A DNA stretch of 32,000 nucleotides from positions 1,440,001-1,472,000 of the forward strand of contig NZ_CP015137.1 of NCBI RefSeq assembly GCF_001644705.1. The letters run 5' to 3'. The notes under the pieces are model-generated. The model was not told the DNA's origin. It did no database searches and worked only from the letters and a program-made list of their open reading frames with translations. Made by a program: the position numbers and the translations under genes. Below are positions 1,291 through 12,025 of the stretch, one piece after another; position 1 is the stretch's first letter; the number at the start of each line of letters is the position of its first letter. The DNA comes from Dickeya solani IPO 2222. Lineage in GTDB: Bacteria; Pseudomonadota; Gammaproteobacteria; Enterobacterales; Enterobacteriaceae.

Positions 1291-1366
1291 TGGAGCGGGA
1301 AACGAGACTCGAACTCGCGACCCCGACCTTGGCAAGGTCGTGCTCTACCAACTGAGCTATTCCCGC
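1291..1366 (-). tRNA. glyV: tRNA-Gly (anticodon GCC), copy 1
   Basis: The reverse complement reads GCGGGAATAGCTCAGTTGGTAGAGCACGACCTTGCCAAGGTCGGGGTCGCGAGTTCGAGTCTCGTTTCCCGCTCCA. This is the enterobacterial glyV/X/Y-type tRNA with an encoded CCA. The position next to queG matches E. coli synteny. Confidence 0.95.
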
Positions 1367-1546
1367 ACACGCAACGCTTAAGTATCGACGCTTTTCCGCC
1401 AAACGCAAACTGACGTGATCACATTTTGCGCTACCTCTATGGCGCCACAGCTAACTTATTGATTTTACTGTGTTTTGAAAGCTGTACCGCAAAGAGGGCA
1501 GTATTATGAACCAATCTTTCTATTCTGACAAGGGGGACAAACAATT

Positions 1547-1584
1547 TTCTTTGAGCCACGCAGACTTCTTTGAGCCACGCAGAC
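1547..1584. repeat. Perfect 19-bp tandem duplication (ttctttgagccacgcagac x2)
   Basis: Read directly: 1547-1565 is identical to 1566-1584. Confidence 0.9.
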
Positions 1585-1893
1585 GCCCGGTAAGTGGTTT
1601 CATCCGTCAGCCATCACCGACCCCGCCACACTCTGACGATGACGTAAAAACTTAATATTGCCTGACTTTTGAAATAAGGAAGCGCTGTCCTATTTCAGAG
1701 CATACTATCCATAGAGAGTAAACGATAAGAATTCTTATTCTCGAACATGGCAAATAGGAAAATCACCACTAAAAAAAGTCTGTCATTGCTGTAAAATAAT
1801 GACTTAACCTGTAAAATCGGGACAGTAAAAGATAGGTACTGAACATAGACGATGCAGGCGCATCTGCTTGATATATATAAACCCCATACAATT

Positions 1894-1931
1894 CAGAGCT
1901 TTGGCAACTGTGAGCCAAGGGCGGTAGCTTG
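1894..1931 (+). promoter_or_regulatory. JUMPStart element containing the ops site (GGCGGTAG at 1920-1927) for RfaH recruitment
   Basis: cagagctttggcaactgtgagccaagggcggtagcttg closely matches the 39-bp JUMPStart consensus (CAGTGCTCTGGTAGCTGT.AAGCCAGGGGCGGTAGCGTG). It lies about 75 nt upstream of the manC ATG. Confidence 0.85.
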
Positions 1932-2003
1932 TCTGAATTAATATATCCCCAAGCGATTCGAAAAACCCTTTTTCGAACGGAAAATAATCAAGGTTATTAC
2001 AAG

Positions 2004-3401
2004 ATGTTACTCCCCGTAATCATGGCTGGTGGTACAGGTAGTCGCCTGTGGCCGCTTTCACGTGAGCTTTATCCCAAGCAGTTCATTTGTCTCCACGGTC
2101 AGAACTCCATGCTGCAGGAAACGGTTAACCGCCTGAGTGGTATTGAAACGCGAGCGCCTGTAGTGATCTGCAACGAAGAACACCGTTTCCTGGTTGCAGA
2201 GCAGTTGAGACAAATTAACCAGCTATCCAACAATATCATTCTGGAACCTGCGGGGCGTAATACCGCTCCGGCGATCGCGCTAGCTGCACTGAACGCGATC
2301 AGACAGGGAGAAGACCCTCTCCTTTTGGTGCTGGCCGCCGACCACATCATTGAAAATACAGCCGCATTCCACTCCTCCATCAAAAAAGCCATTGCTTACG
2401 CCCAGAAAGGGAGTTTGGTCACGTTTGGTATCGTCCCTACCGGCCCTGAGACCGGCTATGGATATATTCAGCGCGGCGAAAAATTACCCGGTGACGAATC
2501 CTCGCCTCATAAGGTTTTACGGTTTGTTGAAAAACCAAGTCTCGAGATTGCAGAGGAATATTTACAATCGGGCGAATATTACTGGAATAGCGGTATGTTC
2601 ATGTTCCGCGCCAAACGTTATTTGCAGGAACTGGAAAAATTCCGCCCCGATATTTTGAAAGCGTGCCAATTATCTATTGATGGCGTTAGTCAGCAAGGGG
2701 ACTTTATTAATGTCCAGACCGAGCACTTTATTACCTGCCCGGACGAGTCCATCGATTACGCTGTCATGGAAAAAACGGAAGACGCCGTTGTTGTTCCTTT
2801 AGACGCAGGATGGAGCGACGTCGGTTCCTGGTCGGCGCTGTGGGAAGTCAATGACAAAGACGACAACGGCAACTCGCTGAAAGGCGACACCTTCCTGCAT
2901 AACACCAAGAACTGTTATATCAATACCGATGACCAGTTGGTTGCCGCAATCGGCGTTGATAACCTGGTAATCGTAAATACCAAAGATGCCGTACTGGTCG
3001 TCCAGAAAGACCAGGTTCAGGATGTAAAACGGGTGGTTGAATTCCTGAAAGAAAAATGCCGCCGCGAATACCGCCGTCACCGGGAAACGTATTGGCCCTG
3101 GGGGCGCTGCGACCTGATTGTCCGCACCGACAGATTTAATGTTAACCGCATTACCGTGAAACCCGGCGAGTCATTCCCATTACAGATGCATTATCACCGC
3201 ACCGAGCATTGGGTCATTCTGTCTGGTACGGCCAAGGTGACGATTCAGGACAAAACCCAGCTATTAACTGAGAATCAATCCACTTTTATCCCAATTGGCG
3301 CTATGCATAAGCTTGAGAATCCTGGGAAGATCCCGCTGGAAATGCTGGAAATCCAGTCTGGTTCCTATTTGGGTGATGATGATTTTATTGAAATCAACTG
3401 A
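2004..3401 (+). CDS. manC: Mannose-1-phosphate guanylyltransferase / mannose-6-phosphate isomerase (bifunctional ManC/CpsB type)
   Basis: [20 protein letters not shown]...[11 protein letters not shown] is colinear with E. coli CpsB, and a C-terminal cupin region is present. The tracked TTG at 1929 overlaps the JUMPStart element, so I take ATG 2004 as the start. Confidence 0.9.
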
Positions 3402-9703: not shown

Positions 9704-9722
9704 GTTATCTTCTGGGAAAAAT

Positions 9723-10850
9723 ATGATTAACGTTCTGCATTTTTATAAAACTTACTATCCCTATACTTATGGTGGAATTGAGCAGGTTATATTTCAGCTT
9801 TGTGAAGGTGCGGCGCATCATGGCGTTAACTCAACGGTTGAATATATTGCCCCCAATAAAGACAGTGATATAGAAAAATTTCACCACCATAACGTCACCT
9901 GCGATCATAAGTTTTTCGAAATATCCTCTACCCCGTTTTCCTTATCATCGATAAGAAAGTTCAAAAAACTGGCAGAATCTGCAGATATCATTCATTACCA
10001 CTTTCCTTATCCTTTTGCTGATATGCTGCATTTTATCTGCAAAATTAAAAAGCCGACGGTCGTCAGCTATCACTCTGATATCCTGAAACAAAAGTATCTG
10101 CTGAAATTGTATAAGCCGCTGATGTACAATTTTTTGGATTCAGTAACATCAATTGTAGCAACATCACCGAACTATCTGGCTACCAGTGAAGTACTGCAAA
10201 AATTCAGCCATAAAACCTCGGTAATTCCTATTGGGCTGGATACCCGTTCTCATCAGGTTATTGATAATGACAATAAGCTGAAATGGCAGAAAATCCTACC
10301 CGAACGCTTTCTGCTGTTTATCGGCAACCTAAGGTATTACAAAGGCCTGGGTACGCTTTTAGATGCCATAGAGAATACCCCGGAAATAAAAATTGTTATT
10401 ATTGGCTCCGGGCCTCAGGAAAAGCAGTTAAAAGAACAGGTCTCAAGAAAAAACATTGAAAATGTCTATTTTCTTGGTGCGCTGCCCGACAATGATAAAA
10501 ACGCATTACTTGAGCTTTGTTCCGGCATTGTTTTTCCGTCTCAATTACGAACAGAAGCATTTGGGATCACCCTGCTGGAAGGGGCAATGCATGGTAAACC
10601 GCTGATCTCCTGTGAAATTGGCACCGGCACATCTTTTATTAACATTGATCGTCAAACCGGGATTGTCGTGCCGCCATCGGATCCGGCAAAACTGCGTGAA
10701 GCGATGGAATATCTGTGGATGAATCCGGAAAAAGCGCAGGAAATGGGTCAGAACGCCCAAAAAAGATTCCATGAGTTATTCACGGCTGAAAAAATGGTGA
10801 ATGACTACGTCGCCCTTTACAAAAAGCTTCTGCACAGGGAGCACGTCTAG
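9723..10850 (+). CDS. Family 4 (GT-B) glycosyltransferase
   Basis: MINVLHFYKTYYPYTYGGIEQV and the EX7E region TEAFGITLLEGAMHGKPLISCEIGTG are typical of GT4 mannosyl/rhamnosyl-type transferases. Confidence 0.85.
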   Translation: MINVLHFYKTYYPYTYGGIEQVIFQLCEGAAHHGVNSTVEYIAPNKDSDIEKFHHHNVTCDHKFFEISSTPFSLSSIRKFKKLAESADIIHYHFPYPFADMLHFICKIKKPTVVSYHSDILKQKYLLKLYKPLMYNFLDSVTSIVATSPNYLATSEVLQKFSHKTSVIPIGLDTRSHQVIDNDNKLKWQKILPERFLLFIGNLRYYKGLGTLLDAIENTPEIKIVIIGSGPQEKQLKEQVSRKNIENVYFLGALPDNDKNALLELCSGIVFPSQLRTEAFGITLLEGAMHGKPLISCEIGTGTSFINIDRQTGIVVPPSDPAKLREAMEYLWMNPEKAQEMGQNAQKRFHELFTAEKMVNDYVALYKKLLHREHV

Positions 10851-10895
10851 TCATCCCTCTTTCGGCGGCAAGGATGCCTGATTTCCGCTTCACCA

Positions 10896-11822
10896 TCAGT
10901 AACTTCTATCGAAATCCACCTCTCCTGCTAACGCCAGCCCTTGCCGGAAGCGAGGCAGGTTGTCCAGAACCAGTTTCCCCAGACGAGCAGGCACCAGCGG
11001 CCCGGCAACATGCGCCGTGATCGTGAGATTCGGCGTGCACCAGAACGGATGATCGCCCGGCAGAGGCTCCTGTCGAAACACATCCAGTACCGCCCCGGCA
11101 ATCTGCCCCGCATGCAAGGCTGCGCACAAATCCGTATCTACCACCGCGGTGCCACGGCCAACATTGATAAACAACGCCGAAGGCTTCATCGCAGCAAATA
11201 CGCCTGCATGATAGATATCCGTTGTGGCTGGCGTTTCCGGCAAAATGTTGATGACGTAATCCGCAGACGCCACCGCTTGTTCAAGCGACGACAACCCCTC
11301 GATCCGTGCAAACATCGGCATCTCGCGCGGTGAATAAGCCACGCCGTACAGCTCCACGCCAAAAGGCTGCAGAAAAGCCGCCACCTCCCGGCCAATATCC
11401 CCCGCACCGACAATCAGCACCCGACGCCCGAACAGCGACCCCGGCAATATCTTTTTCCATTCGCCACGTTGTTGACTCCGCAACCGTTGCGATAGATGAA
11501 GTTCATGCTGCAACAGGTAAGCCAGCACATATTCAGCAATAGGCTGACCAAACACCCCGACGGCCCGGCTCAGCCGATAATCACGCGGCAACCCCTCGGC
11601 CAGTAAAGGTTTATAGCCGGCCCAGGTCGATTGCAACCAGCGAGGTTTCACCCCCTGAGCCAACAATTGAGCAGCCTTGTCCGGCTCGCCCACCCAAATA
11701 TCACAGGTCGCAGCCTGAGCGGCCTCACCCGAGCCGATCACCAACGGTAAGTCCGGCACCGCCTCATGCAGTACGTCACGTAGCTCATCCGCACGGGAGT
11801 CCAACAGCAGAATGGATGTCAT
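10896..11822 (-). CDS. D-isomer-specific 2-hydroxyacid dehydrogenase (GhrA/YcdW-like)
   Basis: It has the NAD fold VLIVGAGDIGREVA and the catalytic context VGRG...LDVFRQEPLP...TITAHVAG. The C-terminus resembles E. coli GhrA. Its GC-rich composition is unlike the adjacent polysaccharide genes. Confidence 0.85.
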   Translation of the reverse strand: MTSILLLDSRADELRDVLHEAVPDLPLVIGSGEAAQAATCDIWVGEPDKAAQLLAQGVKPRWLQSTWAGYKPLLAEGLPRDYRLSRAVGVFGQPIAEYVLAYLLQHELHLSQRLRSQQRGEWKKILPGSLFGRRVLIVGAGDIGREVAAFLQPFGVELYGVAYSPREMPMFARIEGLSSLEQAVASADYVINILPETPATTDIYHAGVFAAMKPSALFINVGRGTAVVDTDLCAALHAGQIAGAVLDVFRQEPLPGDHPFWCTPNLTITAHVAGPLVPARLGKLVLDNLPRFRQGLALAGEVDFDRSY

Positions 11823-11949
11823 GTTCGTCGTCTATGGAAAACTCATACGACGATAATATATGAAATCGGGATAACGCCAAATAGCGGTGACTTATGACTG
11901 TGACTATTTGAAATACGACAAGAAAATAGGAAAAAACGGAGAGAAAACT

Positions 11950-12025
11950 TGGAGCGGGAAACGAGACTCGAACTCGCGACCCCGACCTTGGCAAGGTCGT
12001 GCTCTACCAACTGAGCTATTCCCGC
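11950..12025 (-). tRNA. glyX: tRNA-Gly (anticodon GCC), copy 2, identical to copy 1
   Basis: 76/76 nt identical to 1291-1366. The flanks are not conserved. Confidence 0.95.

Follow-up and report, generated by a model that had tools for sequence, protein, structure and literature searches.

Here we analysed a stretch of 32,000 nucleotides (nt) from Dickeya solani IPO 2222 (RefSeq assembly GCF_001644705.1, contig NZ_CP015137.1, positions 1,440,001 to 1,472,000 of the forward strand; hereafter the window), in which an eight-gene O-polysaccharide operon (manC, manB, gmd, wzm, wzt, an fcl-like gene, wbeA and wbeB) lies together with the D-2-hydroxyacid dehydrogenase gene ddh between two tRNA-Gly(GCC) genes next to queG. 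With a probability that we put at roughly 85%, this is an RfaH/JUMPstart-controlled, ATP-binding cassette (ABC) transporter-dependent operon that was acquired horizontally into an already split tRNA pair, the tRNA genes being bystanders. The low guanine-plus-cytosine (GC) content of the insert (44.2% vs 59%), a cassette lineage resembling that of Erwinia sp. V71 and empty sites in outgroup and basal genomes together argue for horizontal acquisition. The locus, its flanks, its presence/absence polymorphism, its product and its phenotype have all been published already, and what we add is incremental, namely base-level junctions, the JUMPstart/ops element, a tRNA split that predates the operon and the relationships among the cassettes.

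Insert junctions and empty sites in related genomes

Relatives (their loci carry L numbers) were reached by looking up exact proteins and homologues of ddh. D. solani and Dickeya sp. Secpp 1600 (L086) share the operon at this position, while empty sites were found in D. zeae (L083, L084), D. aquatica DW 0440 (L089), Dickeya sp. CFBP 2040 (L092), D. lacustris (L093) and Musicola keenii (L094). In every empty site examined, ddh still separates a pair of tRNA-Gly(GCC) genes, which stand about 1.27 kb from each other. Junction mapping, for which the empty sites of D. zeae and D. aquatica were aligned with the window by blastn and MAFFT, showed that homology on the left runs from queG through tRNA copy 1 and its upstream region and ends at about 1550-1551, and that on the right it restarts at about 10893-10911, just beyond the ddh stop codon (10896-10898), with an unrelated spacer of about 30-45 bp in the empty sites in place of the insert. 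The insert starts 184 bp from the 5' end of tRNA copy 1 and 19 bp past its promoter-like site (1531-1503), which falls within a stretch (1367-1549) that is conserved in the empty sites, and it ends 1,057 bp from tRNA copy 2, whose promoter region is conserved with the empty sites to about 12195. These promoter-like sites are predicted to drive the two tRNA copies. From these positions, the tRNA genes appear to be neighbours only, neither mediators of the insertion nor endpoints of the presence/absence polymorphism.

M. keenii stands outside Dickeya and carries the tRNA-ddh-tRNA arrangement without the operon, and D. aquatica and D. lacustris are early-branching within Dickeya. Because the arrangement is found in the outgroup as well as in basal lineages, the split predates the operon, and parsimony favours an empty ancestral state. 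A nucleotide comparison of D. solani with Secpp 1600 gave 92-97% identity for the operon genes and 88-95% for the flanking genes; this equal similarity of operon and flanks points to vertical inheritance of the operon within the clade, with no allelic replacement. The exact ddh protein was found on 24 contigs, all with the same context, and the full locus was present in 24/24 D. solani contigs. Moreover, the window matched assemblies GCA_013339815/845, with the accessions JABAOO and JABAOP, cited as D. solani (PMC7325237, PMC10620192), at 100% in proteins and context. The left junction of D. solani additionally bears a perfect 19-bp tandem duplication (Table 1), which we considered as an insertion signature and rejected, since its two copies adjoin each other and only one occurs in Secpp 1600, making the duplication D. 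solani-specific.

Composition of the insert

The insert (1550-10892) has a GC content of 44.2%, compared with 59.0% for positions 10893-32000 and 56.8% for queG, and GC at third codon positions (GC3) gives the same contrast (42-56% in the insert vs 58-84% in flanking genes). An earlier reading of the window from sequence alone (the original prediction) had described the interval as AT-rich relative to queG and the genes to its right, stepped in composition and ending with a GC-rich 2-hydroxyacid dehydrogenase gene, a description that survived proper calculation: manC, manB and gmd have 49%, 46% and 50% GC, wzm to wbeB 37-43%, ddh 58.4%, and the genes to the right of the interval 53-67%. In all cassette versions compared, each of them AT-rich, manC-manB-gmd are GC-richer than the remaining genes, so that the step belongs to the cassette itself. 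An intergenic hairpin between gmd and wzm coincides exactly with this step, and a second strong one, with a 10-bp stem, lies between wbeA and wbeB (9679-9703); these hairpins may be module joints or internal attenuators that are read through with RfaH.

The domain search detected no integrase or transposase domains among the open reading frames (ORFs) of positions 1-12700, and in 900-12400 a scan allowing up to 3 mismatches detected no partial tRNA-Gly copies, nor did a search for boundary repeats find any. The locus resembles tRNA-linked genomic and pathogenicity islands in its foreign composition, tRNA proximity and patchy distribution. However, such islands have an integrase and an attachment (att) repeat of the tRNA 3' end, both lacking from the D. 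solani locus, and begin at the tRNA 3' end, whereas the junctions at about 1550 and about 10893 lie away from the tRNAs. The original prediction of an O-polysaccharide locus of foreign composition, with neither integrase, transposase nor partial-tRNA scar and distinct from a classical integrase-type tRNA island, was correct in this respect.

Gene content, leader and predicted pathway

The operon combines wzm and wzt with nucleotide-sugar genes and glycosyltransferase genes, as expected of an ABC-transporter-dependent O-polysaccharide pathway, and neither wzx/wzy nor any membrane-protein ORF beyond the wzm/wzt exporter was found in 1550-10892. Both exporter components gave galactan-type matches in NCBIfam (Wzm, E = 1e-64, under the equivalog cut-off; Wzt, E = 3e-73), and Wzt is a short form without the C-terminal carbohydrate-binding domain. 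The 312-aa short-chain dehydrogenase/reductase (SDR) matches E. coli GMER (1bws/1bsv) over its full length (E = 1e-38). An Rmd-type reductase, as in the D-rhamnan pathway, was dropped as a candidate for this protein, as NCBIfam and PDB matches favour an Fcl-like enzyme. For the wbeA product, no Pfam match was obtained and a sequence search of the PDB was uninformative, but its AlphaFold2 (AF2) model (pLDDT 85.8) has GT4 enzymes as top Foldseek matches (HepE, BshA, MshA, WaaG and PimA, E to 7.5e-14), so that the predicted structure matches a GT-B/GT4-like glycosyltransferase.

In the pathway that we propose, ManC and ManB synthesise GDP-mannose, from which Gmd forms GDP-4-keto-6-deoxy-mannose. 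The Fcl-like SDR would then carry out 3-epimerisation and 4-reduction, giving GDP-6-deoxy-D-altrose, a product that we infer from the known O-polysaccharide structure (PMC6336734, PMC8787198). WbeA and WbeB would probably prime and extend the homopolymer on an undecaprenyl-linked primer, and Wzm/Wzt would export the polymer, which would subsequently be ligated to the lipid A core. The system is similar to that of the Pseudomonas aeruginosa common polysaccharide antigen (D-rhamnan), likewise a homopolymer of a GDP-mannose-derived 6-deoxyhexose with wzm/wzt export and GT4 enzymes, and to that of Klebsiella O2a galactan in the short Wzt without carbohydrate-binding domain, to judge from the best NCBIfam matches. 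It differs from both in that the reductase is Fcl-like and not Rmd-like, the sugar is 6-deoxy-D-altrose and the scores remain under the equivalog cut-offs.

Within the 5' leader, the operon polarity suppressor (ops) site GGCGGTAGnnTG lies on the coding strand about 72 bp before the manC ATG and inside a JUMPstart RNA element, the arrangement of a JUMPstart/ops-controlled operon for manC to wbeB. The last ~240 bp of the leader (1760-2003) are nearly invariant between D. solani and Secpp 1600, and ops is also found upstream of the related cassettes in L095-L098. The site is a predicted loading site for RfaH, which would carry transcription through the operon.

Table 1 Features of the queG-ddh region, with positions in the window and the evidence for each.
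Feature	Position	Strand	Evidence
queG (epoxyqueuosine reductase), 5' end truncated by the window edge; conserved left anchor	22-1008	plus	Pfam QueG_DUF1730 + Fer4_16
tRNA-Gly(GCC) copy 1	1291-1366	minus	ARAGORN; Rfam RF00005, 69 bits
Promoter-like site, tRNA copy 1	1503-1531	minus	TTGTCA-17-CATAAT; consensus scan 10/12
Perfect 19-bp tandem duplication (TTCTTTGAGCCACGCAGAC x2), left junction	1547-1584	plus	repeat search
Inserted segment, leader + eight-gene operon, ~9.34 kb, 44.2% GC	1550-10892	plus	blastn + MAFFT vs empty sites
JUMPstart RNA element	1894-1931	plus	Rfam RF01707, 40.4 bits vs gathering score 35
ops site GGCGGTAGCTTG inside JUMPstart	1920-1931	plus	pattern search; single occurrence in window
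manC	2004-3401	plus	Pfam NTP_transferase + MannoseP_isomer; 465 aa in D. solani assemblies
manB/cpsG, phosphomannomutase	3426-4799	plus	Pfam PGM_PMM I-IV
gmd, GDP-mannose 4,6-dehydratase	4835-5953	plus	Pfam GDP_Man_Dehyd, E = 1.7e-152
Intergenic hairpin, 11-bp stem, between gmd and wzm	5969-5997		terminator-like scan
wzm, O-polysaccharide ABC exporter permease	6018-6791	plus	Pfam ABC2_membrane
wzt, ABC exporter ATPase, short form, 243 aa	6795-7526	plus	Pfam ABC_tran only
Fcl-like SDR, 312 aa	7537-8475	plus	NCBIfam GDP-L-fucose synthase, 180 bits (equivalog cut-off 500)
wbeA, predicted glycosyltransferase, GT-B fold, 399 aa	8472-9671	plus	AF2 model + Foldseek
wbeB, GT4 glycosyltransferase	9723-10850	plus	Pfam Glycos_transf_1 + Glyco_transf_4
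ddh, D-2-hydroxyacid dehydrogenase, convergent to operon	10896-11822	minus	Pfam 2-Hacid_dh_C; 58.4% GC
tRNA-Gly(GCC) copy 2	11950-12025	minus	ARAGORN; Rfam
Promoter-like site, tRNA copy 2	12122-12150	minus	TTGCCA-17-CATAAT; consensus scan 10/12

The tRNA-Gly(GCC) pair and the queG-linked array

ARAGORN found two tRNA genes in the window, both Gly(GCC) and both on the minus strand. They are identical at 76/76 nt with unrelated flanking sequences and are separated by 10,583 bp, in agreement with the original prediction, which had given about 10.6 kb; the repeat that includes them stretches to 87 nt at 95% identity. Their perfect identity is, on the sequences compared, uninformative with regard to a recent duplication or event, because the gene is invariant from Aeromonas to E. 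coli (the identical 76-nt sequence is found in the E. coli, Serratia, Pantoea, Rahnella, Citrobacter, Hafnia and Aeromonas loci).

The queG gene shows 75-88% amino acid (aa) identity to that of other Enterobacterales among the matches listed (one genome per species), the top one being Pectobacterium sp. PL152 (88%), with no Dickeya among the matches listed. Among 27 queG loci from elsewhere in the Enterobacterales, queG is usually followed directly by three tRNA-Gly(GCC) genes in tandem, and in E. coli K-12 the order is orn-glyV-glyX-glyY-queG, in line with the tandem glyV-X-Y that the original prediction had given for this site. Dickeya shares with E. coli the queG neighbour, the strand relationship and the identical 76-nt tRNA, but where E. 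coli has three tandem copies with orn adjoining, the two Dickeya copies are separated by ddh, a gene other than orn adjoins them on the right, and some Dickeya species also carry the operon within the split array. The ddh gene is the resident gene between both tRNAs in all Dickeya/Musicola loci seen, and its orthologues share 72-95% aa identity within these genera and 64-71% in Brenneria, Lonsdalea and Pectobacterium.

Further rearrangements were observed around this array. In two Xenorhabdus species (L005, 13894-19871; L056, 13615-19572) it is split 1 + 2 by about 5.7 kb encoding a 1126-aa POR/DUF6537 oxidoreductase and a DAO-family flavin adenine dinucleotide (FAD) oxidoreductase, with no integrase seen in this insert, and queG is separated from the first tRNA by an HpaB-like gene; this independent case shows that non-mobile cargo inside the queG-linked array is not unique to Dickeya. 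In Pectobacterium brasiliense (L091, 10001-20320) a distance of about 8 kb, occupied by ahpC/ahpF and unknown genes, separates queG from the ddh orthologue and only one tRNA-Gly is present, and in Pectobacterium sp. PL152 (L003) no tRNA occurs within 10 kb of queG. The queG-tRNA-Gly neighbourhood has been repeatedly rearranged in Pectobacteriaceae.

A second chromosomal site and the origin of the cassette

WbeA homologues, found also in Pantoea stewartii, Yersinia and Sodalis, led to the same eight-gene cassette at another chromosomal site, in D. zeae MK19 (L095, L096), D. chrysanthemi (L097) and M. keenii (L099), where it is located downstream of an HxlR-family gene and upstream of genes for a CapD-like dehydratase, an epimerase and a small Bac_transf sugar transferase. 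In one genome, M. keenii GCA_014855505, the queG/ddh site is empty (L094) and the second site filled (L099). The cassette of Erwinia sp. V71 (L098) adjoins the same CapD-like, epimerase and Bac_transf genes. A tRNA arm common to both sites was rejected: in L097 the nearby tRNA is Gly(CCC) and not GCC, 1.4 kb off on the far side of the HxlR gene, and in L095 no tRNA is in range.

The proteins of D. solani are closer to those of Erwinia sp. V71 than to those of the second-site cassettes (aa identity, V71 vs second site: ManC 88% vs 44-45%, ManB 81% vs 70-71%, Gmd 95% vs 94-95%, Wzm 86% vs 82-84%, Wzt 88% vs 82-83%, Fcl-like 83% vs 76-79%, WbeA 83% vs 75-78%, WbeB 73% vs 54-56%), and nucleotide identity between the cassettes of the two sites is about 73% over manB to wbeA. 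The higher identities to V71 indicate that the D. solani operon is not a simple relocation of the second-site cassette. As the cassette ends (ManC 44%, WbeB about 55%) are far more diverged than the middle (Gmd 95%), the cassette is a mosaic. A cassette lineage that D. solani seems to share with another genus fits horizontal acquisition.

Relation to the published locus

The locus was described by Ranjan et al. (PLoS One 2021, PMC7877592), including its tRNA-Gly and ddh + tRNA-Gly flanks. Their Dickeya O-antigen lipopolysaccharide cluster is the same locus, with the gene order cpsB(manC)-cpsG(manB)-gmd-wzm-wzt-fcl-wbeA-wbeB, the same flanks, the same presence/absence pattern and Dickeya as host. 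In their survey, 15/54 strains, including all D. zeae, have only ddh between two tRNA-Gly genes, no genome with ddh lost by tRNA-tRNA recombination was reported among the 54 strains, and an alternative O-antigen locus near lpxP is the variable site for O-antigen types in the genus (PMC7877592). Base-level junctions, JUMPstart/ops at the cluster, per-gene GC content and the relation to the Erwinia sp. V71 cassette are not part of that description.

The D. solani O-polysaccharide is a homopolymer of ->2)-beta-6-deoxy-D-altrose, for which nuclear magnetic resonance of the O-polysaccharide and a phage depolymerase are the published evidence, and has been assigned to the eight-gene operon (PMC6336734). 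The operon product is the receptor for phages PP35 and PhiD5 (PMC6336734, PMC9232599), and Tn5 insertions in manC, wzt, wbeA and fcl made D. solani resistant to PhiD5, abolished infection and lowered fitness in planta (PMC9232599). The operon in these two reports comprises the same eight ORFs, with protein lengths (465, 243, 399 and 312 aa) that agree with the window, and the tRNA context is not discussed there.

Alternative explanations

The queG-linked tRNA-Gly(GCC) array could be an integrase-free site of recurrent capture in Enterobacterales, at which a single homologous crossover of a circular molecule with a copy of the 76-nt gene would yield a tRNA-cargo-tRNA arrangement. Such a process would explain the ddh split and the Xenorhabdus insert, and we regard it as unlikely; for the O-antigen operon itself this route is excluded by the sequence comparison, with room left for the older ddh split and for rare deletions. 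If it were true, rare tRNA-tRNA loss of ddh and operon would produce rough, phage-resistant D. solani variants.

A move within the genome, from the lpxP-proximal locus (site B) to the queG/ddh site (site A) inside the Dickeya lineage, would account for the eight genes in the same order with ops upstream at site B in D. zeae MK19, D. chrysanthemi and M. keenii, and for the two sites appearing mutually exclusive in the genomes seen. Yet the ~73% nucleotide identity of site A to site B is below that of core flanking genes between the same species (77-87%), manC at 44% and wbeB at about 55% aa identity fall below their values for the Erwinia sp. V71 cassette, and near site B the tRNA is of the Gly(CCC) and not the GCC type, which makes this move distinctly unlikely.

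The original prediction had seen in the paired tRNA repeats possible homologous arms for excision or for a swap of the serotype cassette, which would proceed by RecA-dependent recombination. The region is indeed enclosed by a perfect direct repeat of 76 bp (87 bp at 95%), only some of the relatives have the operon, and 76 bp exceeds the minimum usually required for homologous recombination. This expectation was not confirmed. The breakpoints lie 184 bp and 1,057 bp away from the tRNAs, and all seven empty sites examined keep both tRNAs and ddh, whereas deletion between the tRNAs would remove ddh and spare a single tRNA; the natural empty alleles thus differ from the one-repeat recombination product and, in these relatives found via ddh, do not represent an excised cassette. 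Furthermore, the full locus is kept in all 24 D. solani contigs, and the tRNA sequence is invariant across Enterobacterales, so its identity is no sign of a recent event. The comparison of relatives that had been suggested for this slot came out divided, in that the operon is indeed present or absent among genomes but no alternative cassette was seen there among the loci compared, nor in the published survey (PMC7877592). We consider excision or swapping through the tRNAs very unlikely.

Still less probable is an operon ancestral to the site in Dickeya/Musicola that was repeatedly and cleanly deleted in D. zeae, D. aquatica, D. lacustris, M. keenii and CFBP 2040. O-antigen loci are often lost, and a loss would be tolerable where an equivalent cassette is carried at another site, as in M. 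keenii (L094 with L099) and D. zeae MK19 (L095). However, at least 4-5 independent deletions with the same two endpoints would be required, including one in the outgroup, the operon is still 15 GC points under its flanks, and it is closer to a cassette of another genus than to the other Dickeya cassette. Most improbable is a degraded classical tRNA-targeting island that lost its integrase and att repeat, for which low GC, tRNA proximity, patchy distribution and the published proposal that tRNA genes favour integration of such clusters (PMC7877592) can be cited, but against which stand the lack of integrase/transposase domains and of a partial tRNA repeat, the position of the insert on the 5' promoter side of tRNA copy 1, 184 bp off and not at its 3' end, and a distal tRNA that is a full functional gene also in empty sites.

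Horizontal acquisition into an already split tRNA pair thus remains our preferred reading, with several points weighing against it. At the junctions there are no repeats, target duplication or mobile-element genes that would point to a mechanism of insertion. The direction, gain and not loss, rests on parsimony over a handful of genomes, and anchoring the search on ddh would miss genomes in which ddh had been lost by tRNA-tRNA recombination. Erwinia sp. V71 provides the closest cassette found and not an identified donor. Finally, the product of the Fcl-like enzyme and the roles of both glycosyltransferases are predictions.

According to the preferred reading of horizontal acquisition, the queG-linked array would first have been reduced, in the Dickeya/Musicola lineage, to two tRNA-Gly(GCC) copies split by ddh. 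A self-contained, low-GC operon of about 9.3 kb with its leader would later have been inserted in the short spacer that separates the stop codon of ddh from the tRNA copy 1 promoter, most probably in the ancestor of the solani/dadantii/dianthicola/fangzhongdai group and most probably by horizontal transfer from the cassette lineage also seen in Erwinia sp. V71, and would have been inherited vertically since.

Neighbouring genes

To the right of tRNA copy 2, positions 12196-12673 are AT-rich (about 44% GC), not conserved with D. zeae or D. aquatica and 87.5% conserved with Secpp 1600, and the small ORFs called there differ by assembly (56-93 aa). The first gene beyond this stretch occupies 12674-13399. 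A GC-rich block follows at 13377-20472 (62-66% GC, GC3 up to 84%), with genes for two luciferase-like monooxygenases, two family-3 solute-binding proteins, a GNAT acetyltransferase and an ABC permease/ATPase; D. zeae, D. aquatica and D. lacustris have this block, which CFBP 2040 and M. keenii lack at this position. The right edge of the window holds nifQ (31097-31783). In M. keenii (L094, 1-2832), a sigma-54 activator with GAF and HTH_8 domains (nifA-like by position), a radical-SAM/Nitro_FeMo-Co gene (nifB-like) and nifQ adjoin the lysR-M20-M20-abgT-marR-osmC block leading to tRNA-Gly/ddh. As these nif genes stand beside the shared block, the nif cluster is a near neighbour of the region.

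Conclusion

The operon matters for the biology of D. solani, as it makes the O-antigen, which is the receptor of biocontrol phages as well as a fitness factor on potato. The separate cassette lineages and the tRNA genes as bystanders would be useful for reconstructing O-antigen history, for typing or for the design of polymerase chain reaction assays in Dickeya.

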